Source: Promethearchaeota archaeon
GTDB taxonomy: Archaea; Asgardarchaeota; Lokiarchaeia; Sigyniarchaeales; SOKP01
Direction of reading: 5' to 3'
Assembly: GCA_048940645.1 (NCBI GenBank)
Contig: JBHLOI010000041.1
Coordinates: forward strand, 1 to 33,258
DNA: 33,258 nt
Below the pieces are notes generated by a model. That model had not been told where the DNA came from. It saw only the letters and a list, made by a program, of their open reading frames with translations, and did not search any database. Of the stretch, positions 2,618-30,177 are shown in pieces (the first letter of the stretch is position 1; each line of letters begins with the position of its first letter). The translations under genes were made by a program, and so were the position numbers.

Positions 2618-3324
2618 ATGGATGATTTTAACTTAAAAATATATTCTTCTATAAGTTCTATAGCTTTAAATGCATCTTGATTTTTACCAAATCGTCTTAC
2701 ATTCTTAATATTTTCTTCGATTTTATTTCGAAAATCTGTAATTAAATCTTTATTATGTTTTTCAATGGCAATCTTCAACCTTGTGGTCAAAATTAATGTT
2801 TCTAAAGTTAAATTTTCAGCTCTATTAAAGAGTTTATAAGATTCTTTAATTTTTACCAGTGATAAAATATTTAATATAAATTTGGAAAGATTAATTTTTC
2901 CAAAAGTATCTTTCCTAGTATACTGTGATTCTTTTTTAATCTCGCAAAAGATTGTTGCCCACGCTTGATTAATATATGGAATTTTACTTATTGAATTATT
3001 AGACTTTTTAATGTCATAATAATTATAATATTCTATAGGGAAAATTCTATACTTTTCAGAGAGATGTAGTCCCTTCAGTGCTGCTAATGCATACAAAAAT
3101 ATATTTTCTACAAAATTTATGCAAATCAGAGAATTTTGTTTTAAGTTTTTATAAGTATTCGTATTAGGATAAGGCTCAATGCTTATTTCATTATTGTCAA
3201 TTATTCTAATTCCCATACACGACGTATTCGGAATAAGTTCATTTCTTTTAATTGAAAAGGTAGTAGCTAATATTTCATATAAATAACCTTTTTTAAGTCC
3301 AAGTTCTTGAATATTTCCATTCAT
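2614..3324 (-). CDS. DUF447 family protein (split-barrel, pterin-cluster associated)
   Basis: YEILATT...PN..CMGI...YPNTNTYKNL...FNRAENL.LE..I..TR pattern; pterin gene context. Confidence 0.75.
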   Translation of the reverse strand: MNGNIQELGLKKGYLYEILATTFSIKRNELIPNTSCMGIRIIDNNEISIEPYPNTNTYKNLKQNSLICINFVENIFLYALAALKGLHLSEKYRIFPIEYYNYYDIKKSNNSISKIPYINQAWATIFCEIKKESQYTRKDTFGKINLSKFILNILSLVKIKESYKLFNRAENLTLETLILTTRLKIAIEKHNKDLITDFRNKIEENIKNVRRFGKNQDAFKAIELIEEYIFKLKSSI

Positions 3325-3426
3325 TAATTAATTCAACTTTAAAAATAAACAGAATCTATAATTTACTCTAAATTCTTAAGCTAAAAAACTTTCTAAAATA
3401 ATATTTTGTTAATAAAAAAAAAGAAT

Positions 3427-3960
3427 TTATTTGAGTCTCTGTTCAGATAAATTAAGATGATCAGATTCTACCTCTACAAATGCTTCGAAAATCTCTTTCA
3501 CACGAGGATTTGAAGATTCAGATGCAGCTTGAGTATAAAATTTTATTGCTCTCTCTTCTCGAGAATGTGATTCTTCAAGATTAGGTTTATATTCAGAAGC
3601 ACATGCATCATATTTTGGTAGTTCCAATTTATCTAATTTAAGTATTTTTTTCCAGACAGAAGCATGTTCATTTTCTACTTTTGCTAAGATTTTAAATAAT
3701 TTTTGACCCTCGAGATTTGGAGTCTTATTACTTGCGCATTTATAGAAAATTGTATTAGATACCTCAACTTCTAAAGCCCTTTCAGCATTAGTTCGATCCT
3801 TATCATTAAGTTCAACATCCCAATCACCTGTGTCATCATAATCTTTAGCTTTGACCATATACTTTTTATAAGCCCCACAAAACGGACAACGACTTGGAGC
3901 CTTTTCCCCAATGTAAGCTTCTCCACAAATTTTACAGACAAATACATTTACAATAGTAAT
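3427..3960 (-). CDS. Rubrerythrin-like protein: N-terminal rubredoxin domain plus ferritin-like four-helix bundle
   Basis: In-frame CKICGEAYIGEKAPSRCPFCG upstream of the ORF-track ATG (3858); ALEVE, VENEH, REERA and VESDH diiron motifs; probable ATT start at 3960. Confidence 0.88.
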   Translation of the reverse strand: MTIVNVFVCKICGEAYIGEKAPSRCPFCGAYKKYMVKAKDYDDTGDWDVELNDKDRTNAERALEVEVSNTIFYKCASNKTPNLEGQKLFKILAKVENEHASVWKKILKLDKLELPKYDACASEYKPNLEESHSREERAIKFYTQAASESSNPRVKEIFEAFVEVESDHLNLSEQRLK

Positions 3961-4155
3961 TTTTTACACCCTAAATTTATATTTTTAATTATATTTATTT
4001 ATAATTTTAAAAATTCTAAGATTTAATTTAAATTTTAAGTTATAGAACTTTTAAGGTATTTAATTTCTTAAGCGATAGTGTTAAACTAATAAATATAAAA
4101 AGAATTGTTGTACTTTCATATATAGATAATTTCAAAAATATCTGATTTTAGTAGA

Positions 4156-5274
4156 ATGAGAAGATCTATATCTCAGCTCAATGTGAAAGTCGTAGGCATA
4201 GATCCTGGTTCACTTAGTTGGGATTTTTTTGGATTAGATAGCGATGAAATTATATTAGACGCTTCTATTCCTTCAAGAGAATTAATAAAAGAACCAAATA
4301 AAGCTATTTCTATCATTAAATCTATTGAAAATATTGATTTGATGGTTGCTCCAAGTGGATTTGGACTTCCTCTCAAAAAGGTCAATGAATTGACTGAAAA
4401 AGATATTTTTTTTACTCTTTTGAAATTTAATAAAGAAGATAAAAATAAATTAATAGGTTTAGGTGAAGTCTTACGCCTAATAAAGTCTGAAAAAATTCCT
4501 GGAGTAATTGTTCCTGGTGTCAAACATTTGCCCACCATTCCACGGTATAGAAAGATCAATAAAGTAGATATGGGTACAGCCGATAAGCTATGCTCCACAG
4601 TTACAGGAATTAGGGATCAAATGGAAAGATTAAATATTGGTCCTGAAAAAACTAATTTTATTATGGTCGAGATAGGGTACGGCTTTACAGCAGTTTTAGC
4701 AATAGAAAATGGTCAAATAATTGATGGGATTGGTGGATCCAATATTATGGGATTTAGAGCATGTGGTAGCCTTGATGGAGAACTTGCTTATCTTATTAAA
4801 ACAATTCAAAAGAAGAATATTTACAAGGGTGGAGTATCATATATTGCTGGATATGAAGATCTAAGTATAAAAGAAATTGCCTTATTAGCTGAAAGAGATG
4901 AACAAACCAATATTGCCCTGAATGCATACATTTCTAGTGTTAAGAAAGCAGTTTATGCGATCTCTTCTTCATTCTCTGAAAAACAGAAGATAAAGGAAAT
5001 TCTTATAGCAGGGAGAGGAGCTGATTTAAAGTATTTAAGAGAGAAGATTTTAGTAAATCTAAATGATATTGCTCCTGTGAAATTGATGAAATCATATAGT
5101 CACTTATCAAAACATGCTGCCCAAGGTGCTGCCTTCATAGCGAATGGATTGTTAGGAGGAAGATTTAAACCAATAATAGATAATTTAAAAATAAAAGAAG
5201 CGACAGGTTCAATTTTAGATGATATTTATATTCCATTTGATAAAAAAAAATTATTAAGTGATTTAAATTCCTAA
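4156..5274 (+). CDS. DUF1464 family ASKHA-fold (butyrate/acetate kinase-like) protein
   Basis: GIDPGS.SWD, APSGFG, NKVDMGTADK, GSLDGELAY and AAQGAAFIANG motifs; the start may be GTG at 4183. Confidence 0.85.
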   Translation: MRRSISQLNVKVVGIDPGSLSWDFFGLDSDEIILDASIPSRELIKEPNKAISIIKSIENIDLMVAPSGFGLPLKKVNELTEKDIFFTLLKFNKEDKNKLIGLGEVLRLIKSEKIPGVIVPGVKHLPTIPRYRKINKVDMGTADKLCSTVTGIRDQMERLNIGPEKTNFIMVEIGYGFTAVLAIENGQIIDGIGGSNIMGFRACGSLDGELAYLIKTIQKKNIYKGGVSYIAGYEDLSIKEIALLAERDEQTNIALNAYISSVKKAVYAISSSFSEKQKIKEILIAGRGADLKYLREKILVNLNDIAPVKLMKSYSHLSKHAAQGAAFIANGLLGGRFKPIIDNLKIKEATGSILDDIYIPFDKKKLLSDLNS

Positions 5275-6844: not shown

Positions 6845-8749
6845 CTAAGATAATATTTCATCAATAATCCTTCCCTGAGACTCCGCCGGTTTTGGAATTT
6901 GGAGAAGATGGGCTAAGGTTGGAGCAACATCTATTAGATTAACTATTTTATTTAATTTAATTCCACTTTCTATGCCAGGACCATTCAAAATTAATGGAGC
7001 ACTAACAGTATAATTACCAAGTTTAGCATTAGGAAGATAATAAGCATGTGCAGCACAATTTACTTGAACGGGGTAAGCTTCTGGTTTCTTTAAGAGATCT
7101 GCCGGTTGTTCAGCAGGGTTTAACTTTTCTAATCTGTAGTCGAATAATTGATAAGACGGATTTAAAAAGTAGATAACGTCCCCAACTCTATCACCATTTT
7201 GACCCAAATCTTCAGCATCTTCCTTCTTAAGTGCGAGATTAATAATATTTTTCCCTGTATCTGGATCTTTTAATTGGTAAAGAGCTTCAATTATTTCATC
7301 TCTAACTGATTCATACTCATTAGAATTTACGATGCCCTGTGGGTCTCTTCCTTTTAGATTAACCCATATATATGGTGGTTCTAAATAAGGAAATGCTTTT
7401 GTTTTTTTCCAATCTAAAATGTAGTTTTTATTATTATCGTCTAATTTATAAGTTAATAAGTTATTTCTAATTAGAGTAGGTAAAGGATTTGCAACTCTCC
7501 ATGAGGGCATAGCACCATGATCGGAAAGAAGAACTACAATTGTTTCCTTATCTACACAAGACTCCATTAATAACTTTGTTAACTCATCTATAATTTTATA
7601 GGCGGTTTTAATATGCTGTCGAGCTTTTTTAGCTTTTTTTTCTGTAAATAATGGAGATTTTTCATATAGATATCCTAATGTCATATGGTTCACACTGTCC
7701 AATATATGAATATGAAAAAAACAAATATCCCAATCCATATAATTTTTCATAAATTTTATTGTATTTGCGAGAGTCAATGCTTCTTTTCTTGCTAATGATA
7801 AGAATTTTGGTATCTTACCTGAAATCATGTAATCTACTTTTTGTACCCTAGGGAGTTTATAAATAATAGCATTTCGAATAATTCTTTCTCCTAAAATTTC
7901 AGGATTAGTCCAGCCTTTTATATTATATAAATTAGTAAATTGAAGCTGTAAATTATTTCCATCAGGTGATATGTCTTTAATTTTTAATTTAAAAAGGCAA
8001 GGAAGTATCCCATAAATAGTAGAAATATCTCGCGAGATCCATTCACTCCATTCATCAATTTTTAGGATATGCCAAACTTTTCTCTTATTTAATTGAATCG
8101 CCAGAGAATTATAACCAGAACCTTCAGTGTCGATCAAATATGCTTTTAAAGGGTGAAACTCTCTAATATTTTTATTTTTTATTACTATTGAAATTTGAAG
8201 GTGTGGAGATAAGCTCTTTATATCTTCTTCTACTTCCTCAGCTAATTTTATTCTTAGAGATTTAATTGAGGCATCATTAGCGTATTTCATGGTGAAAGCT
8301 AAAGTTAGCTCCCTAGGGAGCGATTCAGGTAAAGGCCAAGTTAAGAGACTAATTCCGCCATTTTTTAAATTTCCGGGCCATCCTCCTGGATAATTTAACA
8401 CAAAAGATTTTAGTCTATTTTTATCAGCAACATCCCAAAAGTATTCTGCGTTACAGTATTTAGATAATGACGTCCTTGATCGAATTTTTAATCCATAATC
8501 TAAAGGTTCTCCTGGGATATGCATATAAAAACTTGTAGCTCCATGGATAGCTGTAGTGGCTCCAGTAGCAATTGTTGTCCAATTAGTAGGCGTGTCGCAA
8601 GGAGGGCATGAATAAGCTTCAGCCATCACTCCACCATCAATTAGAGCACCAATGTTAGGGATTAGACCCTCATTATAAAACTTTTTCAAAAGATAAGGTA
8701 TTGCTTGATCTATCCCTATTAATAAAAGTTTTTTAGGTGATATCGCCAT
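6845..8749 (-). CDS. Alkaline phosphatase superfamily protein (nucleotide pyrophosphatase/phosphodiesterase type)
   Basis: LIGIDQA, TPTNWTTIATG (Thr nucleophile), DSVNH, SDHG, VNLKGRDPQGIV and DVAPT motifs. Confidence 0.88.
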   Translation of the reverse strand: MAISPKKLLLIGIDQAIPYLLKKFYNEGLIPNIGALIDGGVMAEAYSCPPCDTPTNWTTIATGATTAIHGATSFYMHIPGEPLDYGLKIRSRTSLSKYCNAEYFWDVADKNRLKSFVLNYPGGWPGNLKNGGISLLTWPLPESLPRELTLAFTMKYANDASIKSLRIKLAEEVEEDIKSLSPHLQISIVIKNKNIREFHPLKAYLIDTEGSGYNSLAIQLNKRKVWHILKIDEWSEWISRDISTIYGILPCLFKLKIKDISPDGNNLQLQFTNLYNIKGWTNPEILGERIIRNAIIYKLPRVQKVDYMISGKIPKFLSLARKEALTLANTIKFMKNYMDWDICFFHIHILDSVNHMTLGYLYEKSPLFTEKKAKKARQHIKTAYKIIDELTKLLMESCVDKETIVVLLSDHGAMPSWRVANPLPTLIRNNLLTYKLDDNNKNYILDWKKTKAFPYLEPPYIWVNLKGRDPQGIVNSNEYESVRDEIIEALYQLKDPDTGKNIINLALKKEDAEDLGQNGDRVGDVIYFLNPSYQLFDYRLEKLNPAEQPADLLKKPEAYPVQVNCAAHAYYLPNAKLGNYTVSAPLILNGPGIESGIKLNKIVNLIDVAPTLAHLLQIPKPAESQGRIIDEILS

Positions 8750-15901: not shown

Positions 15902-17053
15902 TTACCTTTTCTTCTTTAAAAAATGTCTATAGACAATTTGATAATTTTTTATACTAATTATTCTAGGATTACGTTTAAATTTGGATGGAATGGGAGTACT
16001 ACATCGCGAACAGAGATTTGAAGTTTTTAGCCAATCTTTAAATTCATCAGCATGAGCTGGATATCTACAATTTGGACATACGATTATCCCCCTGCCATTG
16101 TCATTGGGGAGTTTTGGCAGCTTAAAACAAAAAATACATTTAAAATCATCTTCTGATAGGTATGATGCTCTTGGTTTATATCTATCTAAATTTATAGCCT
16201 TTGAAGTTGTTTTTACGGCTCTAGTTCTAGTAGTTTTTGTAGTTCTAGTTTTTTGCCTGTGAGAAGTAGGTGTTGTTCTCGATAATTGAGATCTAGATCT
16301 TGTTGTTTGAGTCACTGTTCTTCTTGAAGGTGATGGGGTAGTTCTAGTTGTTGTACGCACCCTTTGCCTTTGAATTGTAGGAGTATTTAATGAATTTATT
16401 CTTCTAGTACGTTGAGCAATGTAATCTCGAGTTAATGTTGGAAGTGTTCTATGTGAACTAGCTAATCCAAAGATAATAAAGATTGATAATGATGCAATGA
16501 ATAATAATAAAAGATTTAGGTTTAAAGAGAAATGAAGAGGGGTTATAGGAGAATCATAAAATTCTATAACAGTATAAAACAATACCCAATAAATTATTAT
16601 AAAAAGAATAACTGTGGAAGTTAGAATATATCCTAATGTCCTAGCTTTTACTGATTTGGTTCCAAAATAGATTACATTATATTTCTTAAAACACCGATAT
16701 AAAGAATAAGAACCATAGATTATAAATGGAAATCCAAAAATGAGACTCCACCAACTAAAATATAGATTTGAGCCTTCAAGAAGGTTTTCACCCAATATAC
16801 CTGTAAAATATCCCCAAATAGAGTAAAAAATTCCGATGAATAAAGGAATAATTACAAAAAAAGCAGTATTGTGTGGTGAATTAAATTCGCGATGCTGCTT
16901 GATATTTTCAAAAATTTTTACTGTAAAAATTATCCATAAACCAATAAATATCCATGTTAAAAAAATATTTAATGAAATTGAGATAGAACCATGTATTATA
17001 CCGATTATCAAAAAAGCGATAAAAATTATCACTAAACCCTTCTTTTTAATCAT
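15902..17053 (-). CDS. Polytopic membrane protein (about 6 TM) with a Thr/Arg-rich linker and a C-terminal RING-like Zn finger; putative E3 ligase
   Basis: Hydrophobic segments across the N-terminal 200 aa; CIFC-x16-CPNC-x4-H-x2-E-FKDW-x6-CSRC; last gene of the Ubl-E1-E2-JAMM run. Confidence 0.8.
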   Translation of the reverse strand: MIKKKGLVIIFIAFLIIGIIHGSISISLNIFLTWIFIGLWIIFTVKIFENIKQHREFNSPHNTAFFVIIPLFIGIFYSIWGYFTGILGENLLEGSNLYFSWWSLIFGFPFIIYGSYSLYRCFKKYNVIYFGTKSVKARTLGYILTSTVILFIIIYWVLFYTVIEFYDSPITPLHFSLNLNLLLLFIASLSIFIIFGLASSHRTLPTLTRDYIAQRTRRINSLNTPTIQRQRVRTTTRTTPSPSRRTVTQTTRSRSQLSRTTPTSHRQKTRTTKTTRTRAVKTTSKAINLDRYKPRASYLSEDDFKCIFCFKLPKLPNDNGRGIIVCPNCRYPAHADEFKDWLKTSNLCSRCSTPIPSKFKRNPRIISIKNYQIVYRHFLKKKR

Positions 17054-17076
17054 GGTTTAATTCTCACCTAAAAATA

Positions 17077-17883
17077 TTATTCATCATATTCTAAATAGGC
17101 AGGTTTACCTTCAATAATTGGATTCATAAATTCCAAAATCTCCGGTAACATTCTCACATCTAAATACCCTTTAATATCAAATGGTACTGAAAACCACTTC
17201 TTTGTTTTAAAATTTGCACGATAGATTTCAAATCCCAATGAAGTGCCATCAATTTGATACGGATCTATAACTAGCGCAATTGCTTTATCCCATAATTTTT
17301 GATATCTTGCTTGAGTTCCTAAATCTTCTTTAGACATAAAGCATCCATATGAAGGATGGGAGTGATACCAACCACAAATAAATAGATTGTGTTTTTTTAT
17401 ATCTTTAAATGCTCTCACATAATTTTTATAATCTTTTATTTCAGCATAAACTGCTGTACCATGTCCCATTGGATAGGCATCTTCCACATGGAGAACTCCT
17501 TTAGCATTATCAAACTTTCCAGCGAGCAATCCTATCACTTCAACCCATTTCTGTCTTCGAATTTTAGAATGAGCGTATTTTAATGAATGACTAGCTATCT
17601 TAAGGATAGTTTTTATTGTTACAGCTATATGTGCTTCAGCTCTATCATTATTAGCATAAGTTATTACTGGTTCCATTGGTATAGGTTCAAGTTTAACTTT
17701 AACTTTTTCTGAATGCCCTAATGGCTGGGTTTCAATAAGTTCGGAAGTTAATTCTTCCCTTAATTCTTCTTCTAATTGTAATTCGGTATATATCTCTTCA
17801 AGTAATTCTTTTTTAATTTTTTCTTTAATTTTTTGTTTTATTGCTTCTTTGATTGAATTGCTATTTTTCTCGTCTATATTCAT
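17077..17883 (-). CDS. JAB1/MPN+ (JAMM) metalloprotease, Rpn11/CSN5-like deconjugase
   Basis: EVIGLLAG and GWYHSHPSYGCFMSKEDLGTQ JAMM motif, ALVIDP; charged N-terminal extension. Confidence 0.92.
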   Translation of the reverse strand: MNIDEKNSNSIKEAIKQKIKEKIKKELLEEIYTELQLEEELREELTSELIETQPLGHSEKVKVKLEPIPMEPVITYANNDRAEAHIAVTIKTILKIASHSLKYAHSKIRRQKWVEVIGLLAGKFDNAKGVLHVEDAYPMGHGTAVYAEIKDYKNYVRAFKDIKKHNLFICGWYHSHPSYGCFMSKEDLGTQARYQKLWDKAIALVIDPYQIDGTSLGFEIYRANFKTKKWFSVPFDIKGYLDVRMLPEILEFMNPIIEGKPAYLEYDE

Positions 17884-17890
17884 TATAATT

Positions 17891-18418
17891 TCACCACTTA
17901 TTCTTAGCGTACTTCTTTACTAAATTTTTAACTTTTTTCTCGAAAAATTTAGGATTTTTCATCATTTCTATTGCTGCTTTTTTATTAAAAACATCTGTTG
18001 GATTTACAAATTTACCTCGGGTATTTAACATAGCAATTATTGCTTGGACTACTGTAACAGCAGTTTTTGAAGGACTCCATCCACCTTTTTTACCAATTAA
18101 GGAAGGATCTACTAATGCTAGACAAATATTCCTCTGACCTTTGTATTCACTTGGTTTTGGCCAAAAATTTGGATGCCAAATCGGAGTATGCATTCTTACA
18201 AAAGGTGGTTGCTTAGGATACTGAACAGGGAATCTCATTTCTAGTTTAAAAAGTCCTCCTGCAAAAGCAGTACCTTTAGGCCCCTTAATTGTGATAGCTA
18301 AATGATCAATGCTCTTCTTTTTAGAATCAAACGGTTTTAATTGAACTATAGTACCAACTTTAAGCATTTTTTTTAATCCAGCAAAATCACGGGAAACGCG
18401 ACTACTTCTTATACTCAT
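17891..18418 (-). CDS. Ubiquitin-conjugating enzyme E2 (UBC fold)
   Basis: ITIKGPKGTAFAGGLFKLEMRFPVQYPKQPPFVRMHTPIWHPN...ICL...WSPS...VVQAIIAML; catalytic Cys99. Confidence 0.93.
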   Translation of the reverse strand: MSIRSSRVSRDFAGLKKMLKVGTIVQLKPFDSKKKSIDHLAITIKGPKGTAFAGGLFKLEMRFPVQYPKQPPFVRMHTPIWHPNFWPKPSEYKGQRNICLALVDPSLIGKKGGWSPSKTAVTVVQAIIAMLNTRGKFVNPTDVFNKKAAIEMMKNPKFFEKKVKNLVKKYAKNKW

Positions 18419-18522
18419 TTTCTCAACCCTTTTTGTTTTTCTTTATTTTTATAATAAAATTTTTCTCTTTTATATATGTTTTTTTCATTAAACTTTTATA
18501 AAATATATTTTTAACTAAAATT

Positions 18523-19758
18523 TCAATTTAATTTTAAGGTTACATAAATTTCTCCACCTTTAAATCCTGCAACTGTAATAAATTCGTAATTTCTTAAACC
18601 GTTTTCGATTGTGGTTTGTTCTAAATCAATTACTTTGATATCATTGAAATCCAATAAGGTTAGAACAGGCTCAAAATCATGTTCTAATTCAAATCCATTT
18701 TTCTTTAATGTCTTAATTATATTTATACAAGGTGATTGAGGTCTCATTTTTATAGCCACTCGTCTAACAGATTTGCCACATTGAGAGCATTCTGGATTTC
18801 TTGGCTTTTCAATATGATATAATCTCATCGTCATTGCATTAAAGATCACATAATCTTTAATAGGTTCTCCTAATCCTACATGACCTTTTTTCCAATGAAG
18901 TATTTTTACTGCTTCGTGTGATTGTAAAGCAGAAATAACCGCATTTATGGTAATTATTCCAGGATCATGCCTATCAATGATTTTTATAATATCATCTGTA
19001 GTATATTCAGGTAAAAAATTATGTTTGTTAACCAATTCATTTGCAACCTTTTGAATAAATTTTATATCAGTTATATCTTTTGGACTAGGTTCTCGATCAA
19101 ACTTTTCCTTAAATGCCATATCTCCTTTAAAAACACAATGAATCCTTTTTCTGGGGACTCCAACAACTGTACACGCTGCCATTTCATCACTTTCGCTTAC
19201 TGGTAGCGGATTGCACTCATAACAAGCATTTTGATACGGAAAGATTGTGTAAATATGACCATGATAGCCGGATACCCCTGCATCTACGAGTGGTTTTCTA
19301 AATCTTATGCATTGAGCATTTAAGTTCAAGCGTGCATTCATTGAATCAAGACCTCCAATTACAACGTCAGCAGCTTGATATAATGCAGGATCTAATCTTT
19401 CTAGAGAGGTATGATATCCTCTAATAATAATGTTAGGGTTTATTTCCTTTAGTTTCCGAGCAGCAACAACTGCCTTAGGTTCTCCTATCTTTGCATCTGT
19501 GAAAAGAATTTGACGATTCAAATTAGAATGTTCAATTATATCTAAATCAACAAGATCTAATTGACCTAACCCTAACATAGCTAAATTCTTAGCTATTTCA
19601 CATCCTAAACCCCCTACACCAACAATTAACACTCTCGAGTTTTTTACTAATTTTTGTGACCAACCTTCGAGACGAAATTGGCGATCATATAAATCTCTCT
19701 CTTTTACTGACAATTCTTTTGCAAAGAAATCTGAATCTTTATCCAATATTATCACCAT
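18523..19758 (-). CDS. Ubl-activating enzyme E1 (ThiF/MoeB fold, UBA3/UBA2-like with a catalytic Cys segment)
   Basis: YDRQ, GVGGLGCE, D.DIIEHSNLNRQ.LF, GLDSMNAR, ACYEC and CSQC Zn site; MAACTVVGVPRKRIHCV resembles the eukaryotic CT-x3-PR/x-x2-HC catalytic segment. Confidence 0.93.
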   Translation of the reverse strand: MVIILDKDSDFFAKELSVKERDLYDRQFRLEGWSQKLVKNSRVLIVGVGGLGCEIAKNLAMLGLGQLDLVDLDIIEHSNLNRQILFTDAKIGEPKAVVAARKLKEINPNIIIRGYHTSLERLDPALYQAADVVIGGLDSMNARLNLNAQCIRFRKPLVDAGVSGYHGHIYTIFPYQNACYECNPLPVSESDEMAACTVVGVPRKRIHCVFKGDMAFKEKFDREPSPKDITDIKFIQKVANELVNKHNFLPEYTTDDIIKIIDRHDPGIITINAVISALQSHEAVKILHWKKGHVGLGEPIKDYVIFNAMTMRLYHIEKPRNPECSQCGKSVRRVAIKMRPQSPCINIIKTLKKNGFELEHDFEPVLTLLDFNDIKVIDLEQTTIENGLRNYEFITVAGFKGGEIYVTLKLN

Positions 19759-19769
19759 TAATAATAATT

Positions 19770-19823
19770 AAAAAAAAAAAAAAAAATGAAGAGCTTAATG
19801 CCTTCATATTATAATTTATGAAG
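19770..19823 (-). terminator. Intra-operon oligo-T tract (T17 on the minus strand) preceded by short hairpins
   Basis: A17 at 19770-19786; CTTCATA/TATGAAG stem (19802-19823); alternative TGAAG/CTTCA stem (19787-19806); lies between the Ubl stop and the E1 start. Confidence 0.5.
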
Positions 19824-19837
19824 AAAATTATATAAGT

Positions 19838-20164
19838 TTACCCAGCAGTACTCGCAGGAATCAAAAGTATATCATCGCCATCATTTATATTATAATCTTT
19901 TAATTGGCTACTTTCATCCATTGTAACTCCACCAGATGATAAATGAAAATCATTAGGATCAAGGCCATATAAATTTCCTAATGTTTCCTTAATATCACTT
20001 ACATGATTAGCATCATTTACTGTTAATTTTTCCTTCTTTTCACCAGGTCCAATGGTTGACGTAAAGTATAAAGTCAATTTCTTTCCCGCTGAAGGAGTTT
20101 TAGTAGATGGTGTTTTAGATTTTACAGGTTCTAATTCCTCATCAAAATCTTCTTCAAAACTCAT
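19838..20164 (-). CDS. Ubiquitin-like protein 1 (beta-grasp) with an acidic N-terminal tail and a single-Gly C-terminus
   Basis: VSDIKETLGNLYGLDP..FHLSSGGVTMDESSQLKDYNINDGDDILLIPASTAG; directly upstream of E1. Confidence 0.9.
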   Translation of the reverse strand: MSFEEDFDEELEPVKSKTPSTKTPSAGKKLTLYFTSTIGPGEKKEKLTVNDANHVSDIKETLGNLYGLDPNDFHLSSGGVTMDESSQLKDYNINDGDDILLIPASTAG

Positions 20165-20245
20165 TTATTTCACGACTTTTTTATTATTTTGTAATTTTTT
20201 ATTTTTTAAGTTTAATAAAATCGCATTAAAACGATATTATAAAAC

Positions 20246-20270
20246 CCATTGGAATGAATTTGAAGTTTTT
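20246..20270 (-). repeat. 25-bp element, copy 1 (inverted repeat partner of 21109-21133)
   Basis: CCATTGGAATGAATTTGAAGTTTTT is the exact reverse complement of 21109-21133. Confidence 0.9.
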
Positions 20271-20432
20271 TTAGTTTTTACTAAAAATAAAAAGAAACTT
20301 ATTTGGATGCTTAAGAAATTATATTATAAATTGAATGAATGCCTAATAATTATATAAGGTGTAAAATAATGTTGCAGAAAGAATATATATTTACAAAATC
20401 GAAATATTTTAACAATATAAAAGTATAGTCTT

Positions 20433-21104
20433 ATGAACTCTGCGAATGATGTCGAATCTATTATTCTTGAATTAGTAAAAGAATATTTAGAAAAAAAGCC
20501 ATTCTTTTCAATAGAAAACATTGTTGTATTTATTAATAATAGGGTAAAATCAAATCCTTTTATCAATAAAGCTAGGATTGAAATTACTATTAAAAATCTT
20601 ATTAAAAAGAGAATGATAATTCCAGGAACAAAATTGATGAAAAATAATATTATTGAACATCCAGTAAGGAATGAAATCTTTAATTACATAAGGAAAAATC
20701 CTTCGAATATAAATGAAATAATGAATGCTCTAAATATTGGAAGTAATCAAGCTTTATGGCATCTATCCTGTTTGGAAAAATTTCGATTTGTTAGATCAAA
20801 AAAAATTAACAATCGAAAAATAATTTTTGAATATGATTCAAATCCAGAACTTGACGAGCTCTATTATTATTTAAATTTAGCTATTATTCAAGAAATAATT
20901 AATTTTATGAAAAAGGAAGATAAAGCCTTAAAAATTACAGAAATAGCAACTAGCTTAAAAAAGAATCATAATATAATTAAAAAATATTTAAACGTTTTAA
21001 AAAAAATGAAATTAATAAAAATAGAAAAAGAAAAAAAAAGATTTAAATTCAAATTAGATACAGAGAAATATTCTAAAGTTAGAGAAATAATTCAAGGTGT
21101 ATGA
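20433..21104 (+). CDS. Tandem winged helix-turn-helix (ArsR/MarR-like) transcriptional regulator
   Basis: RNEIFNYIRKNP...INEIMNALNIGSNQALWHLSCLEKF and LKITEIATSLKKNHNIIKKYLNVL wHTH units. Confidence 0.8.
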   Translation: MNSANDVESIILELVKEYLEKKPFFSIENIVVFINNRVKSNPFINKARIEITIKNLIKKRMIIPGTKLMKNNIIEHPVRNEIFNYIRKNPSNINEIMNALNIGSNQALWHLSCLEKFRFVRSKKINNRKIIFEYDSNPELDELYYYLNLAIIQEIINFMKKEDKALKITEIATSLKKNHNIIKKYLNVLKKMKLIKIEKEKKRFKFKLDTEKYSKVREIIQGV

Positions 21105-21108
21105 ACAT

Positions 21109-21133
21109 AAAAACTTCAAATTCATTCCAATGG
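21109..21133 (+). repeat. 25-bp element, copy 2
   Basis: AAAAACTTCAAATTCATTCCAATGG, 57-81 nt upstream of the membrane-Ubl ATG. Confidence 0.9.
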
Positions 21134-21189
21134 AATTTAAATTTTAAATTATATATTAGAAATTTAGATAATAATTTAATAAAAAAATC

Positions 21190-21999
21190 ATGAAGAAAAA
21201 ACATAGATTTTTAAGTATTATAACTCTTTACGTTATTTTTATAATTATCTATATGGCTTTTTTCTTATTCCGTATAGAAAGCATTCCTTTATTTCTCGTT
21301 CTAGTTATCGGTAGTGTCTCAGTACTATCCACCAGTACTATCTATACAATTATTCAATCTTCAAGCAGTGAGGATAAGAGAATAAGCGAGAAAAAATATA
21401 TCAAAAAACAAAAATCGATTAAAAAAAAAACAATTGATCTCATCGATGATTATATTGATGCCATGCCTTCAATAAAAGATTATGTTGAATCAAATGCATC
21501 ATATGATAATATGAAAATAATTAATAAATATATTTTTTCTGTGTTTAGCCAGGAAGAATTAGATAACATAAATCTTTTAGAATTATCAAAAATGGATAAA
21601 ATAATGTTTATCAGAGAAATGTTGTATTTTAATAAACAAGAGAGAAAAATTTTAATCGAAAATATGTTGAAAAACAGGGATAAGACTGACGATGAAATAA
21701 TCTATAAGCCTCCTACAAATCTTATTGAAAAGGAAGACCAGATACGAGTTTATGTAAGATCATTAGTTGAGCCCGGTGAGAAAACAAAAATCATTATAAT
21801 TGATACAACAGAACTAATAATTGGTGTTAAAGAAAGAATTGGAATATTATTTGACTATAATTTAGAAGATTTTCTTTTATCCTCTGGAGGAATATTATTG
21901 CATGAAAATTCACAAATAAAGGATTATGATATTGATGATGACGACGAAATTGCTCTGATTCCATCAAGAAAAGAAAAAAATTTAAAAAAGAAGAACTAA
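21190..21999 (+). CDS. Membrane protein (2 N-terminal TM) with a C-terminal Ubl domain paralogous to the neighbouring Ubls; no terminal Gly
   Basis: Two hydrophobic helices at about aa 8-55; C-terminal VYVRSLVEPGEK...VKERIG.LF...DFLLSSGG..L.ENSQIKDYDIDDDDEIALIP followed by SRKEKNLKKKN. Confidence 0.85.
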   Translation: MKKKHRFLSIITLYVIFIIIYMAFFLFRIESIPLFLVLVIGSVSVLSTSTIYTIIQSSSSEDKRISEKKYIKKQKSIKKKTIDLIDDYIDAMPSIKDYVESNASYDNMKIINKYIFSVFSQEELDNINLLELSKMDKIMFIREMLYFNKQERKILIENMLKNRDKTDDEIIYKPPTNLIEKEDQIRVYVRSLVEPGEKTKIIIIDTTELIIGVKERIGILFDYNLEDFLLSSGGILLHENSQIKDYDIDDDDEIALIPSRKEKNLKKKN

Positions 22000-22015
22000 T
22001 AGGATAAGGATTTTT

Positions 22016-22432
22016 TTAACCAGCAGTACTTGCCGGAATTAATAATATATCTTCACCATCATTCACGTTATATTCGCTTAGCATTGAACTCTCATCCATA
22101 GTAATCCCACCCGATGATAAATGAAAATCAGCAGGATCTAAACCAAATAAATTCGCAACAGTCTCTTTAATATCTCCAACACTATTTCCTGTGTTTATGA
22201 GTAATTTTTGCTTTTTTTCACCAGGACCTATAGTTGACATAAAATAAACCGAAATCTTTTTGCCTGCCGATACAGCTTTAACTGCTGGAGTTTTAGCTTT
22301 GAGCTCTTCCGCTGGAGTTTTAGCTTTGACCTCTTCCGCTGGAGTTTTCGCGGAAGGTTCTTCTAATTCTTCATCTAAATCTTCATCAAATTCTTCATCA
22401 AATTCTTCATCAAATTCTTCATCAAAATCCAT
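22016..22432 (-). CDS. Ubiquitin-like protein 2, paralog of 19838-20164, with a repeat-expanded N-terminal tail
   Basis: YFMSTIGPGEKKQKL...VGDIKET..NLFGLDPADFHLSSGGITMDESS.L..YNVNDGEDILLIPASTAG; GGTG-N7-ATG start. Confidence 0.9.
   Translation of the reverse strand: MDFDEEFDEEFDEEFDEDLDEELEEPSAKTPAEEVKAKTPAEELKAKTPAVKAVSAGKKISVYFMSTIGPGEKKQKLLINTGNSVGDIKETVANLFGLDPADFHLSSGGITMDESSMLSEYNVNDGEDILLIPASTAG
22284..22348. repeat. In-frame 27-bp tandem repeat (about 2.4 copies) encoding KTPAEE(V/L)KA
   Basis: GCTGGAGTTTTAGCTTTGA(G/C)CTCTTCC twice, then GCTGGAGTTTT. Confidence 0.85.
22365..22424. repeat. In-frame 12-bp tandem repeat (5 copies) encoding DEEF/DEDL/DEEL
   Basis: AATTCTTCATCA three times exactly, plus two variants. 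Confidence 0.85.
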
Positions 22433-22618: not shown

Positions 22619-23740
22619 ATGAATAAAAGAAATATCATGAATGATAAACCTATTCCCAAGTATCAAATTCGCGAAAAAACGCCTGAAGAAGAAATCGAAA
22701 TGATTCCGGATTCAAGACTACTTAAAAAGATAAAGGAAGAAAGGATTAAGTTAAACAGAGAGAAAAGTGATTGGGAAAAGGTTGTTAAAAAGCTTGAAGG
22801 ATATCAAGAAAACATAAAAGAGCTTGAAAAAAAAAGAAAAGAGAAAGAACTTGAAGTTAAAAATCTTCTAAACCAACGTGAAAAGTTAAAAAATGAATTA
22901 GAAAGAATGAAAAATGGGATTAAGCAACATAAAAATGATCTACTGTTAAAAGAAAGAGAGCTAGATCAAAAAAATGCTGACCTAGATAAATATCAAGAAA
23001 AGCTTGATAGACTAAAAGACGCTCTAGAGAGCGAGAAAAAATATCTAGAAAAGGAAAAAGCAAGAGCAGAAATTCGTGTTAAAGAAATTAAAACTAAAAT
23101 ACCTGGAATGGAAAGAAGAGAAAATGCATTAGAGAGAACAATTGAAAAATTAGAAAATGAATTAATGGACTTGAGAAATGAAATCAAACATCTTTCAAAA
23201 GAAAGGGATAATTTAAATAAAGAAATCAATGATCTAAGAAAAAACATTTTTGATGAAAAAAACCGAATTGATGATGAAAAGAGAAAATTAAAAGATGATA
23301 AAGATAAAAATCGTATTAGAAAAAAGGATTTAAATCTTAAAGCTCGTGAAATTGATAAAAAAAAAGAAGATTTAGAAAAATTTAGAGACAAAGTTGAAAA
23401 TGATGTAAAGAATTTGGAAAAAAAGAAAGGACAACAAGAAACAAGATTAAAAGAGCTAAATAGGAAAGTTCCTAAAGCGGAAGATACTTATTATTCATTA
23501 GAACGCAAAATCCGTGATTTAGAAGATAAGCATAAAAGATTAAATAATGATTATAAGCAGTTAGCAAAAGAGAAATCGATGATAGACTCTGAAAAAAATG
23601 CTATTAGAAGAGAGAGAGAAAAGTTAGAAAGAGATAAAGAGAGATTCCTTGGAGAAAAAAGAGATTTTGAGAGAGAATTAAGGAAAATCAAAGAGATACC
23701 AAAATATAAAATCAAATCTAAAACTCCTTCAAAATATTAA
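22619..23740 (+). CDS. Long all-coiled-coil protein of unknown function
   Basis: Continuous K/E/L/R heptads over about 330 aa with no ATPase or globular domain; internal duplication; IPKYxIxxKTP motif at both ends. Confidence 0.8.
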   Translation: MNKRNIMNDKPIPKYQIREKTPEEEIEMIPDSRLLKKIKEERIKLNREKSDWEKVVKKLEGYQENIKELEKKRKEKELEVKNLLNQREKLKNELERMKNGIKQHKNDLLLKERELDQKNADLDKYQEKLDRLKDALESEKKYLEKEKARAEIRVKEIKTKIPGMERRENALERTIEKLENELMDLRNEIKHLSKERDNLNKEINDLRKNIFDEKNRIDDEKRKLKDDKDKNRIRKKDLNLKAREIDKKKEDLEKFRDKVENDVKNLEKKKGQQETRLKELNRKVPKAEDTYYSLERKIRDLEDKHKRLNNDYKQLAKEKSMIDSEKNAIRREREKLERDKERFLGEKRDFERELRKIKEIPKYKIKSKTPSKY

Positions 23741-23760: not shown

Positions 23761-24801
23761 ATGAAAATTCCTACAGGAATTGAAGGAGATTATATAGAAA
23801 CTAAAAGTGATAATTTTTTTTTCGACGTGAAAGGGGTTCATCACCCTTCTGATAGAAAAATATGTTTTATTCGTTTTTATCCTCATCTAAATGGGGATCG
23901 AATCAAAAATGGAAAGAAGTATAAAAAGATCTACGATCTACAAGAACGGTTCTCCTTTTTAAGAAAGCATCACCCAAAATATTTATTTTTCTCTAAAGAA
24001 TTTGATATAGAGCTACAATGTGTCAAAAATGAGGATATTAAAAAAATTTATACTCCACGAGAATATTATAAAGAATTATCGCAAAAATTTAATCCTGACC
24101 GTCTTGAAAAATGTTCTAAAGATCTATGTGAATTATTTATCGAAAAGGCAATGCTCCCACATGGTTCAATCGGTATAACAGGTTCTCAAATGGTTGGATT
24201 AAGCAAAAATCAATCTGATATTGATTTGATTATTTATGGAACAGACATAAGCCGAAATTTCCAAAATAAGCTTCCTATTATCCTAGAAAAAGATCAATAT
24301 TGTAGAAAATATACCAAAGAAGAATACCACAATCATTATGAATGGAGAGTGGGAGGTTCAAGAATTCCATTTGAAAATTTTTTAAAAAGTGAGAGAAGGA
24401 AGCTCCATCAGGGTATGTATAAGGAATTTGAATTTTTTATAAGATATATAAAAAGTCCTAAAGATTGGAAGGGAACTTATTATGATTATTTATATAAAAA
24501 TATGGGAAGAATAAAATTAAAAGCAGAAATCATTGATGATTCTAATGCTATCTTTACACCTTGTTCCTATAAAATAGATGGCATAAAAGTCTACAATAAT
24601 AAATACATTTCAAAAAAGATTAAATTAGATGATATTATGATGGTAACTTCTTTCAGAGGAAGATTCTGTGAACATGCAATTAAAGGAGAAAAGGTTCTTG
24701 TTGAGGGAAAATTGGAAAAAGTCATTTTTAGGAATAATAAAGAATATTTTAGAATATTATTAACAGATCAGAAACAAGATAAAATGATGATTTTAGAATA
24801 A
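23761..24801 (+). CDS. Archaeal predicted nucleotidyltransferase (pol-beta superfamily) with a C-terminal OB-like domain
   Basis: FDVKGVHHP.DR, GITGS..VG...SDIDLIIYG and SFRGRFCE.A..GE.V.VEGKLE motifs. Confidence 0.8.
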   Translation: MKIPTGIEGDYIETKSDNFFFDVKGVHHPSDRKICFIRFYPHLNGDRIKNGKKYKKIYDLQERFSFLRKHHPKYLFFSKEFDIELQCVKNEDIKKIYTPREYYKELSQKFNPDRLEKCSKDLCELFIEKAMLPHGSIGITGSQMVGLSKNQSDIDLIIYGTDISRNFQNKLPIILEKDQYCRKYTKEEYHNHYEWRVGGSRIPFENFLKSERRKLHQGMYKEFEFFIRYIKSPKDWKGTYYDYLYKNMGRIKLKAEIIDDSNAIFTPCSYKIDGIKVYNNKYISKKIKLDDIMMVTSFRGRFCEHAIKGEKVLVEGKLEKVIFRNNKEYFRILLTDQKQDKMMILE

Positions 24802-25979: not shown

Positions 25980-27290
25980 ATGGATTTGTTTAATTGTGAT
26001 CTTCATATTCATTCACCACATTCTATTGCAGTTTCTAAATCATTAAATTTAGATTCAATGAGAGAAACCTGTAAAAAGAAAGGGCTTCATATTTTGGGTA
26101 CTGGTGATGCCCTACAACCAGACTGGCTTAAATATTTAGAAAAAAATCTAAAGCGTAACAATGATAGAGCATATTATTATAAGGATATCTCGTTTATACT
26201 ACAAACTGAAATTGAAGATAGAGATAGTGTCCATCAAATGGTGCTTTTTCCTAATTTTGATACGGTTAAACAAATACAAAATAAACTGAAACCTTACTCT
26301 AAAAATATTCTTGATGAATGGGGAGGACGTCCAAGAGTAAATCTTTTTGGTGCGGAGTTAGTAGATTTAATAACCGACTCTGGCGGTTTGATTGGACCTG
26401 CTCATGCGTTTACTCCATTTAAAGCAATATTTCGCCAAAATAAATATAATACATTAGAAAGTTGCTACCAAGATACTGTAAAAAAAGTAACTTTTCTGGA
26501 ATTAGGATTATCTGCTAATACAGAATTGGCTGATCGTTTAGAATCTTTAAATAATGTCACATTTCTAAGTAATAGTGATGCTCATTCTCAAGATCCTCGT
26601 TCTTTAGGCCGAGAATTCAATCAATTAGATATCGATAATCCCTCTTTTGATGAGATTGAACTTGCCTTGAGAAGAAAAGAAGGGAGGAAAGTAACACTCA
26701 ACGTAGGATTACACCCTAAACTTGGAAAATATTATAATATGTTTTGTAATAAATGTAGGAGAAGGGTTTTATTTAAAAAAGGTAAAAGCGGTATTTCAGA
26801 AATTTTTTCTCAATATACCATAACTGATAATTTTATTCTATTCTTCTCAAATAATCCATTAAAATCGAGAATAGATTACATTAAACAAGTAGCAAAGGAA
26901 AAAATGATTTGTCCTAGCTGTAAGGAAGCAACTGGTAAAAATTTTAAAATTAGATTAGGCGTGAGTGAGAGAATTGAAACGATTGCTTCCTACAAGAAAC
27001 CAAAACATCCAGAACATCGCCCTCCATATATAAACGCTATTCCTCTAATCGATATAATTCGATCTATTAGAGGGGTTAAAAGTACTAAGAGTAAAACTGT
27101 ATTAAATGAATACAATAGGTTAATTGAAAAATTTGGCACTGAATTTTCGATTTTAATCGATATACCAATAACAGACATCGAAAAATTTAATAAAAATATT
27201 GCTTCTATTATAAATGCTTTTAGGAATAATGAAATCCAATATTCACCTGGCGGAGGAGGATCATATGGAGAAATTAAATTTGATCTTTAA
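25980..27290 (+). CDS. PHP-domain protein with Zn finger, endonuclease Q-like
   Basis: DLHIHS, GTGD, GRP, GPAHAFTP, ELGLSA, SNSDAHS...LGREFN, LGKY..CNKC...CPSC..GVSERI and PGGGGSYG motifs. Confidence 0.85.
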   Translation: MDLFNCDLHIHSPHSIAVSKSLNLDSMRETCKKKGLHILGTGDALQPDWLKYLEKNLKRNNDRAYYYKDISFILQTEIEDRDSVHQMVLFPNFDTVKQIQNKLKPYSKNILDEWGGRPRVNLFGAELVDLITDSGGLIGPAHAFTPFKAIFRQNKYNTLESCYQDTVKKVTFLELGLSANTELADRLESLNNVTFLSNSDAHSQDPRSLGREFNQLDIDNPSFDEIELALRRKEGRKVTLNVGLHPKLGKYYNMFCNKCRRRVLFKKGKSGISEIFSQYTITDNFILFFSNNPLKSRIDYIKQVAKEKMICPSCKEATGKNFKIRLGVSERIETIASYKKPKHPEHRPPYINAIPLIDIIRSIRGVKSTKSKTVLNEYNRLIEKFGTEFSILIDIPITDIEKFNKNIASIINAFRNNEIQYSPGGGGSYGEIKFDL

Positions 27291-29694: not shown

Positions 29695-29991
29695 TTATTT
29701 CATCATATCTATTGCTTCTGAACCTTCAATTAAAGGCTGAATCTTAAACACATATCCTTCAAATCTCGTAAAAGCGGAAAGCCGCTTAGCAATTCCCTTT
29801 ATTCCCTCATACAGCTTTTCTTTTGGTATCTCATAGATGTTATATATTTTATAATGGTAATCTGCGACTACCCATTGATAAATACGCTTCACAAATTCGG
29901 GATATGCAGGAGCTTTACCTGAAACGTAGAATTTTACTGTATCCTCAGCAATATGAGGAGGATATTTTACTATACTCATAACGTAAACCAT
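29695..29991 (-). CDS. Small hypothetical protein
   Basis: ORF with GGTGA upstream of ATG 29991 (ORF track gives 30006); no recognised motif. Confidence 0.6.
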   Translation of the reverse strand: MVYVMSIVKYPPHIAEDTVKFYVSGKAPAYPEFVKRIYQWVVADYHYKIYNIYEIPKEKLYEGIKGIAKRLSAFTRFEGYVFKIQPLIEGSEAIDMMK

Positions 29992-30177
29992 TCTGAATTT
30001 CACCATTTTCTTTTACTAATGGTAAGAAAAGTTATTATTAATTGTTATAAAAATTTTTACTATAATATCAAATATAAAAATTGAGGATTTAGTTCAATTA
30101 AACAAAAAGTTTTTGGAGAATGTATATTTATTCATTTAATACATGAATTAAAATTGAAAAAACCATTATTGAATACG

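Follow-up and report, generated by a model that had tools for sequence, protein, structure and literature searches.

The window analysed here is a stretch of 33,258 nucleotides of DNA from a Promethearchaeota archaeon of the class Lokiarchaeia (assembly GCA_048940645.1, contig JBHLOI010000041.1, positions 1 to 33,258, forward strand). It is AT-rich (GC ~29%), and our subject is a run of five co-oriented minus-strand genes, reading from 20164 to 15902, that encode a ubiquitin-like protein (Ubl1), an E1 activating enzyme, an E2 conjugating enzyme, a JAMM metalloprotease and a RING-type protein with six transmembrane (TM) helices. The gaps between these genes, in order, are 79, 104, 7 and 23 nucleotides. 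Two further Ubl genes lie nearby, one for a second free protein (Ubl2) and one for a membrane-anchored protein. An earlier note, made from the sequence alone, had listed this gene set and its orientation, including Ubl2 and the tethered Ubl, and every item was correct. Lengths are given below in amino acids (aa), with the Pfam family and E-value or other basis for each assignment.

19838..20164, minus strand: Ubl1, 108 aa; PF00240, 7e-7, 29.3 bits against a cut-off of 25.4
18523..19758, minus strand: canonical-type E1, 411 aa; ThiF, 2e-60
17891..18418, minus strand: E2, 175 aa; UQ_con, 1.5e-24
17077..17883, minus strand: Rpn11-like JAMM metalloprotease, 268 aa; JAB, 1e-14
15902..17053, minus strand: polytopic RING-type protein, 383 aa; hydropathy, and zf-RING_16 at 0.078
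21190..21999, plus strand: membrane-anchored Ubl-domain protein, 269 aa; PF00240, 3e-4, and hydropathy
22016..22432, minus strand: Ubl2, 138 aa; PF00240, 2.6e-5, 24.4 bits, just under the cut-off

This kind of system is known as the archaeal ubiquitin operon, and the operon here is a variant of it. The operon of Ca. Caldiarchaeum subterraneum encodes a pro-ubiquitin, an E1-like and an E2-like protein, a small RING finger protein and an Rpn11-like JAMM (PMC5654768, PMC6043591; PDB 6FJ7, 6FNN, 6FJU), and a Helarchaeial E1/E2/RING cascade has been reconstituted (10.1101/2023.07.25.550441). As in Caldiarchaeum, the same five kinds of gene are clustered and a minimal E1 carries a short Cys insert; the Caldiarchaeum ubiquitin and JAMM are also the best solved relatives of the Ubl and JAMM in the window. 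Unlike the Caldiarchaeum operon, the one here has a tag that ends in Ala-Gly rather than Gly-Gly and carries a disordered N-terminal tail, and it has extra paralogs in Ubl2 and the TM-anchored Ubl. Where Caldiarchaeum has a small soluble RING, the 383-aa protein here has six TM helices fused to its finger and a Glu at ligand position 6. In the searchable literature we found no description of an invariant Ala-Gly end, of a polytopic RING with Glu at ligand 6, or of an anchored, non-conjugatable Ubl.

Synteny across Asgard genomes, a check that the earlier note had proposed, bears the locus out. In a sample of ten distant loci from four GTDB families, the complete set of Ubl, E1, E2, JAMM and TM-RING genes was present in all ten, with the order kept in seven; in the remaining three, the E2-JAMM-RING block lies apart from the Ubl-E1 pair. 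Ca. Lokiarchaeum ossiferum B35, which is in culture, also has the operon and its Ala-Gly tag (CP104013.1, about 3.534-3.540 Mb), and other named records that carry both are Ca. Hodarchaeum mangrovi, two closed Heimdall-labelled chromosomes, Helarchaeota, Sigynarchaeum and Promethearchaeum. Across 301 Asgard genomes, the Ala-Gly tag family occurs in 133, among them 60 of the 68 genomes in the window's own family and the majority of genomes in several others; one large family has none (0 of 76). Given this recurrence across Asgard lineages, the locus is not a chance assembly of genes. Separately, E2 genes with 86-97% identity were observed on contigs labelled Nanopelagicaceae bacterium, Odinarchaeota, Thorarchaeota, Hodarchaeota and Hermodarchaeota (locus L059, which is DATKTW010000176.1, and JBHL... 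records among L055-L119), which suggests Loki-type contigs that were mis-binned or mislabelled.

The tag and its Ala-Gly end

Ubl1 and Ubl2 are ubiquitin-family beta-grasp modifiers with an invariant Ala-Gly C-terminus. Both terminate in LLIPASTAG and a stop codon follows directly, as the earlier note had said in claiming ends with no propeptide. Ubl1 consists of a disordered, acidic, KTP-containing N-terminal tail (residues 1-27) and a ubiquitin-fold core (28-108), for which AlphaFold2 predicts the order b1-b2-a1-b3-b4-3(10)-b5 at a predicted local distance difference test score (pLDDT) of ~87. The best Foldseek match of this model is Caldiarchaeum ubiquitin (6fj7/6fno; E 1.6e-7, TM-score 0.83), with ubiquitin variants, SUMO1, NEDD8 and ISG15 among the further top matches. 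A VIA fold search returned ISG15 at Z 14.2 and ubiquitin at Z 13.2, the latter with a root-mean-square deviation of 1.5 over 75 residues. Sequence comparison gave the same picture: the best matches of Ubl1 are ubiquitin, ISG15 and Caldiarchaeum ubiquitin, profile alignment with hhalign placed the Ala-Gly family with ubiquitin at a probability of 96.2% (E 2e-9, score 48.8), and the ESM Atlas neighbours of the tag belong to PF00240. Against the PF00240 cut-off, Ubl1 scores above, while Ubl2 and the anchored Ubl (20.8 bits) fall below.

The tag departs from ubiquitin at its very end. The alignment of Ubl1 with ubiquitin runs ungapped to the C-terminus and places Gly108 on Gly76 and Ala107 on Gly75, so the C-terminal Gly-Gly of the ubiquitin family is replaced here by Ala-Gly. 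This pair is invariant in an alignment of 26 diverse family members, in which G79, L100 and P103 are likewise invariant, and the same end was observed in 158 family sequences and in ~147 free Ubls from 90 loci. Trypsin would leave a 19-residue remnant of the tag, DYNINDGDDILLIPASTAG. The family is large: 830 close relatives are 80-97% identical, and at the 50% level there are 288 representatives. In about one third of the close relatives nothing follows the Ala-Gly, and the others add 1-7 variable residues (YF, RLI or CFE, for example). Caldiarchaeum pro-ubiquitin has a short C-terminal extension too, and these variable residues fit a modifier whose mature end would be exposed by a protease. 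Other relatives of Ubl1 (P0121, P0122 and P0137 among them) have tandem Ubl repeats of three and two copies, or N-terminal extensions of up to ~480 residues ahead of a C-terminal Ala-Gly Ubl.

The two paralogs differ in kind. Ubl2 has a longer acidic repeat tail and a core that is 71% identical to that of Ubl1 (BLASTP 9e-53); two free Ala-Gly Ubls are present in 60 of the 83 related loci that have any. The anchored protein has a hydrophobic N-terminus (4-55) and a Ubl domain at 190-256, and ends in ALIPSRKEKNLKKKN (also given as LIPSRKEKNLKKKN). Because this end lacks a terminal Gly, the anchored Ubl would not be conjugatable. Its orthologs, 59 in the 90 loci, all have an end of the LIPSRK type.

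The earlier note had gone further and called the modifier UFM1-like, matching UFM1 in the spacing of its tail, and had proposed a UFMylation precursor, that is, an archaeal UFM1 homolog served by canonical enzymes. Several features do point this way. Like UFM1, the tag has a single terminal Gly, and the I-P-x4-G tail is common to both, as is the long beta1-beta2 loop; UFM1 also acts at a membrane, that of the endoplasmic reticulum. In hhalign the tag family aligned with UFM1 over the full length, colinearly and across 71 columns (E 0.015, score 16.6), compared with a score of 10.9 for ubiquitin against UFM1. The UFM1 side of these comparisons was made of database sequences named UFM1, retrieved at 100% identity with a 75-aa UFM1 bait. 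Structure-based Ufm1 homologues have moreover been reported in nine Asgard clades (PMC12962969, 2026).

The direct comparisons favour ubiquitin instead. The Pfam family Ufm1 (PF03671) had no match at E<=1 in the window proteins or in the whole genome, and none above cut-off in the 301 Asgard genomes. The hhalign probability for the tag family is 2.9% with UFM1, against the 96.2% with ubiquitin (ubiquitin against UFM1 reaches 0.3%). In the profile and Foldseek comparison with UFM1, SUMO and ubiquitin that the earlier note had suggested, ubiquitin-type proteins lead; UFM1 does not appear in the top 50 rows from either Foldseek or VIA, an absence that refers to those rows only, while ubiquitin, ISG15, SUMO, NEDD8, Hub1 and FAT10 are all there. 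The ESM Atlas neighbours carry PF00240, and the tail of the tag is as long as that of ubiquitin, so its spacing does not discriminate between the two. The enzymes differ as well: the eukaryotic UFM1 pathway uses UBA5, UFC1, UFL1 and UFSP, whereas a canonical E1, an HPN-type E2, a RING and a JAMM are found here, and the E1 matches UBA2 at 1e-38 against 3e-16 for UBA5.

A better UFM1 candidate exists elsewhere in the genus. The UFC1 family PF08694 had no match in this genome, but a UFC1-like E2 was found above the Pfam cut-off in 13 of the 301 Asgard genomes, and within the genus in four genomes at E<=0.001, two of them above cut-off. Congeners have it in a separate operon, exemplified by contig 91 of genome G231 (L173; 1354-5436, plus strand), which encodes a Cdc48-N/zinc-ribbon protein, a 275-aa E1, a 390-aa JAMM, an 88-aa protein ending in IIDRGIVG, and the UFC1-like E2 (PF08694, 24.4 bits). 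The 88-aa Val-Gly protein has no BLASTP or Pfam similarity to UFM1. This operon is a better candidate than the Ala-Gly family for the Asgard Ufm1 homologues of PMC12962969. Two other leads were discarded: a weak PF03671 match in genome G169 (E 0.0017) was taken as spurious, its frame resembling a nucleoside phosphorylase by eye, and a ThiF gene on contig 11 of this genome, considered as part of a UFM1-type operon, has acetyltransferase-like neighbours instead. In all, six independent tests speak against a UFM1-like tag, and a UFM1 homolog paired with canonical enzymes is very unlikely in our judgement. The residual likeness (the single Gly, the Pro four residues before it and the longer first hairpin), which has no profile or fold-ranking support, is regarded as convergence or a weak signal.

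The enzymes and the six-helix RING-type protein

The E1 is of the canonical type, close to UBA2 and UBA3 as the earlier note had proposed. Its matches to PDB sequences are led by UBA2 (1e-38), UBA1 and UBA3 (1.5e-35), with MoeB (3e-33) and UBA5 (3e-16) behind them. It has an adenylation domain with a glycine-rich loop, two CxxC pairs (179/182 and 324/327) of the usual zinc site, and a short Cys insert with Cys196, which aligns with the catalytic Cys of human UBA2 (PGCTIRN motif); residues ~340-411 form a C-terminal domain that may be a ubiquitin-fold domain. G47, G49, C179, C182, C196, C324 and C327 are invariant in 86 orthologs. The E2 is likewise of the HPN type, with HPN at 82-84, a 7-residue insert, and then Cys99, its sole Cys. 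Its best PDB matches are Ubc15 (6.6e-15) and Cdc34/UBE2R, Cys99 aligns with the catalytic Cys of Ubc15, and both HPN and Cys99 are invariant in 90 orthologs. With a UBA2-type E1 and an HPN-containing UQ_con E2, these enzymes are indeed distinct from UBA5 and UFC1, as had been claimed. The JAMM protein has a charged helical N-terminal extension and the motif H174-x-H176...S184..D187, the four residues of which are invariant in 83 orthologs; its best PDB match is the Caldiarchaeum Rpn11-like protein (6fju, 1.6e-17), followed by Rpn11, CSN5 and AMSH. The catalytic and zinc residues of all three enzymes are thus invariant across 83-90 orthologs, down to 36-51% identity.

The likeness of the E1 to MoeB raises the question of whether the small protein is a sulfur carrier of the SAMP, Urm1 or MoaD type and not a protein tag at all. 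Archaeal SAMPs (small archaeal modifier proteins) have dual roles. However, the operon also encodes an E2, a RING and a JAMM, the E1 has an inserted catalytic Cys and lacks a rhodanese domain, E1s of the MoeB/ThiF type are found elsewhere in the genome, and the tag belongs to PF00240 rather than ThiS/MoaD. We consider a sulfur carrier scarcely credible here.

The last gene of the operon encodes a multi-TM RING-type protein, as the earlier note had it; this protein is the likely ligase. Hydropathy places six hydrophobic helices at about 6-22, 27-46, 63-85, 97-116, 139-162 and 175-198, which are followed by a basic linker rich in Arg, Thr and Ser and then by the C-terminal finger; orthologs mostly have 4-6 predicted helices. 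From hydropathy and the distribution of charge, both termini should be cytoplasmic. The eight candidate ligand positions of the finger are C306, C309, C326, C329, H334, E337, C348 and C351; neither they nor W341 vary among 30 orthologs, which reach down to 31% identity. Cys or His fills seven of the eight, and position 6 is an invariant Glu.

We accept a RING-type fold for this finger on the basis of profile searches and its predicted structure. The best profile match is the RING-like C-terminus of IFT144 (4e-5), and the RING fingers in that search are RNF24 (0.003) and then RNF165, EL5, RNF4 and RNF38. In the alignment E337 falls on zinc ligand six of RING-H2 fingers (Cys6 of RNF24), and W341 aligns with the Trp through which RNF24 contacts the E2. 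The AlphaFold2 model of the finger has a pLDDT of 84, and RING or U-box domains occupy all of the best 50 rows in Foldseek and in an exhaustive VIA search (best Z 7.7).

In architecture the protein resembles the polytopic RING ligases of eukaryotes (Hrd1/gp78, MARCH and Pex2/10/12), in which TM helices are followed by a cytoplasmic RING that would bring a charged E2 to the membrane. The TM domain here has no detectable sequence or fold relation to them. It gave no PDB sequence match at E<=10 and no usable feature match in ESM Atlas, its ESM Atlas model is poor (pLDDT 0.56), and the nearest folds of that model are unrelated bacterial membrane proteins. Since the TM domain is without a recognisable relative, nothing links the six-helix protein specifically to Hrd1. 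The HRD1 RING is one of many RING matches to the finger (E 2.9 in the profile search, rank 18 in Foldseek), and no retrotranslocation partner of the Hrd1 type was identified.

Neighbourhood of the operon

Upstream of the operon lies a gene for a protein with two winged helix-turn-helix (wHTH) domains, which is flanked by the arms of an inverted repeat, and beyond Ubl2 there is a gene for a coiled-coil protein.

20240..20270, no strand: inverted repeat, left arm, 31 nt, 76-106 nt upstream of Ubl1
20433..21104, plus strand: double winged-helix protein, 223 aa; HTH_5/ArsR, 4e-9, with a second wHTH at 150-205
21109..21139, no strand: inverted repeat, right arm, 31 nt, 51-81 nt upstream of the anchored-Ubl gene
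22619..23740, plus strand: coiled-coil protein, 373 aa; Pfam matches to coiled-coil only

The two arms are 94% complementary and sit upstream of divergent gene starts, with Ubl1 on one side and the anchored Ubl on the other. The repeat looks like an operator common to both promoters, and the double wHTH protein, which has an ortholog in 64 of 90 related loci, is likely a local regulator. The coiled-coil gene keeps its place beside a Ubl gene in other genera, in loci L044, L045, L049 and L050, in Ca. L. ossiferum and in Promethearchaeum, and its product may be a substrate or an adaptor. Three other open reading frames of the window, at 23761-24801 (plus, 346 aa), 25980-27290 (plus, 436 aa) and 29695-30006 (minus, 103 aa), match no Pfam family at E<=0.001.

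The flanking genes are of the housekeeping type (methanopterin and F420 biosynthesis, FtsZ and alanyl-tRNA synthetase). This bears on the idea that the locus serves in defence against viruses, as bacterial modules of the Bil or CBASS (cyclic-oligonucleotide-based anti-phage signalling system) type do. It resembles those modules in gene content (Ubl, E1, E2 and JAB), and its E1 also matches PADLOC E1-E2 models over the adenylation domain (4e-18). In PADLOC only the generic ThiF and JAB cores were matched, while the Ubl, the E2 and the RING gave no match. Defence islands are patchy, whereas this operon is syntenic and near-universal within families, as in the 60 of 68 genomes of the window's own. 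A role in defence of this type is therefore highly improbable in our view.

Relation to Gly-Gly ubiquitin and the proposed pathway

Asgard archaea also have a Gly-Gly ubiquitin. The Lokiarchaeum ubiquitin of Hatano et al. (Lokiarch_37670, PMC9192718) ends in AGG followed by five residues and lies near ESCRT (endosomal sorting complex) genes. It shares organisms, fold and enzyme classes with the Ala-Gly system, but it belongs to another gene family and another locus, has a Gly-Gly end and binds UEV/Vps23, while the Ala-Gly operon is without ESCRT neighbours. As the earlier note had said of the window, no open reading frame of at least 100 aa matched an ESCRT family in Pfam; ESCRT genes are present elsewhere in this genome. 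A search with 78 aa of Lokiarch_37670, as given in the PMC9192718 supplement, located the Gly-Gly family in 70 of 81 genomes from the class; of the 25 congeners, 20 have it. Lokiarch_37670 matches Ubl2 at E 0.17, i.e. it is unrelated to the Ala-Gly family at the sequence level.

A second set of enzymes is also present in this genome. Contig 121 (L007) carries another canonical-type E1 (2631-4205, plus strand, 524 aa), which has the same AACT Cys motif and is 47% identical in the adenylation half, and ~3 kb away a solo UBC-fold E2 (6936-7445, minus strand, 169 aa). This pair may serve Gly-Gly ubiquitin, and two canonical E1/E2 pairs in one genome match the two types of tag. A third cluster was seen on contig 60 (L008; 7433-10353, minus strand), where genes for a P-loop protein, a 163-aa JAB protein, a 293-aa ThiF E1 and a 186-aa E2-like protein lie together; no Ubl gene could be recognised there, and the cluster is similar to E1/E2/JAB modules of bacteria.

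The reading we consider probable is that the operon encodes a dedicated pathway for ubiquitin-type conjugation, which would be the second of its kind in Asgard archaea of the Loki and Heimdall/Hod types. In this respect the earlier note's proposal of a distinct Asgard Ubl pathway agrees with the evidence, both in the separate Gly-Gly family and in the second E1/E2 pair. Alternatively, there could be one shared cascade, in which the E1 and E2 of the operon are the general machinery that also charges the ESCRT-linked Gly-Gly ubiquitin, and the Ala-Gly proteins are extra substrates. Hatano et al. described discrete ubiquitin and ESCRT regions in Lokiarchaeota, and their E2 alignment includes the E2 family of the Ala-Gly operon (PMC9192718), both of which would suit such an arrangement. 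Against it stand the Ubl gene at the head of the operon in all lineages checked and the paralogous 524-aa E1 with its solo E2 on another contig, which could serve Gly-Gly ubiquitin. Dual-specificity E1s do exist, UBA6 being an example, yet we judge a single shared cascade unlikely.

Several points weigh against a dedicated second pathway. A ubiquitin of the Lokiarch_37670 type was not found in this assembly, which is 89.6% complete, so the case for two systems in one cell rests on the congeners; most simply, its absence is likely an assembly gap. Cross-talk between the two E1/E2 pairs is possible. In the predicted RING, a Glu replaces a Cys/His zinc ligand, and the RING scores are modest (zf-RING_16 E 0.078, Foldseek E 5e-3, VIA Z 7.7). 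For E1s of the canonical type, the penultimate Ala of the tag is unusual. ATG8 (Phe-Gly) and ATG12 (Trp-Gly) demonstrate that a penultimate residue other than Gly is compatible with E1-type activation, but these depend on ATG7, a non-canonical E1, and differ in their folds or decorations.

For the dedicated pathway, we can propose a mechanism by homology to the reconstituted Caldiarchaeum and Helarchaeial cascades (PMC5654768; 10.1101/2023.07.25.550441). Gene content, folds, catalytic residues, conservation and synteny were established here by computational analysis, while the chemical steps, the substrates and the biological role are all inferred. A homodimeric E1 would adenylate Gly108 with ATP and load the tag onto Cys196, from which it would move to the HPN-type E2 and its Cys99. 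At the cell membrane, the charged E2 would meet the cytoplasmic RING-type finger of the six-TM protein, which would promote passage of the tag to lysines of membrane or membrane-proximal proteins; the Rpn11-like JAMM would remove it again. The JAMM would have a further task, cleavage of the precursor, in relatives with 1-7 extra residues or tandem tags; here, both tags would be ready for use as made. The TM-anchored Ubl is probably a membrane docking or decoy surface, and the wHTH protein probably regulates both promoters through their common inverted repeat.

Archaeal ubiquitin operons are regarded as the ancestors of eukaryotic ubiquitylation, and the published work concerns Gly-Gly tags and small soluble RINGs. 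A pathway with an Ala-Gly tag that was kept into the lineages nearest to eukaryotes would show that orthogonal ubiquitin-like systems diversified before eukaryotes arose, and the membrane placement of a RING ligase would likewise predate them. Proteomics based on the di-Gly remnant would miss an Ala-Gly modification. With the operon present in cultured Ca. Lokiarchaeum ossiferum and its parts all small, the pathway is directly testable. More tentatively, and as a proposal that we hold to be rather unlikely, archaea from the Lokiarchaeia to the Hodarchaeales may keep a second dedicated pathway with an obligatory Ala-Gly tag, invisible to di-Gly proteomics and one on which Gly-Gly-specific enzymes should not act, whose sole ligase is a polytopic RING that has Glu as a zinc ligand. 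Should this ligase mark membrane proteins so that they are extracted or turned over, it would represent a prokaryotic precursor to quality control by RINGs embedded in membranes, whether of endoplasmic reticulum-associated degradation (ERAD), of MARCH or of the peroxisomal RING complex.

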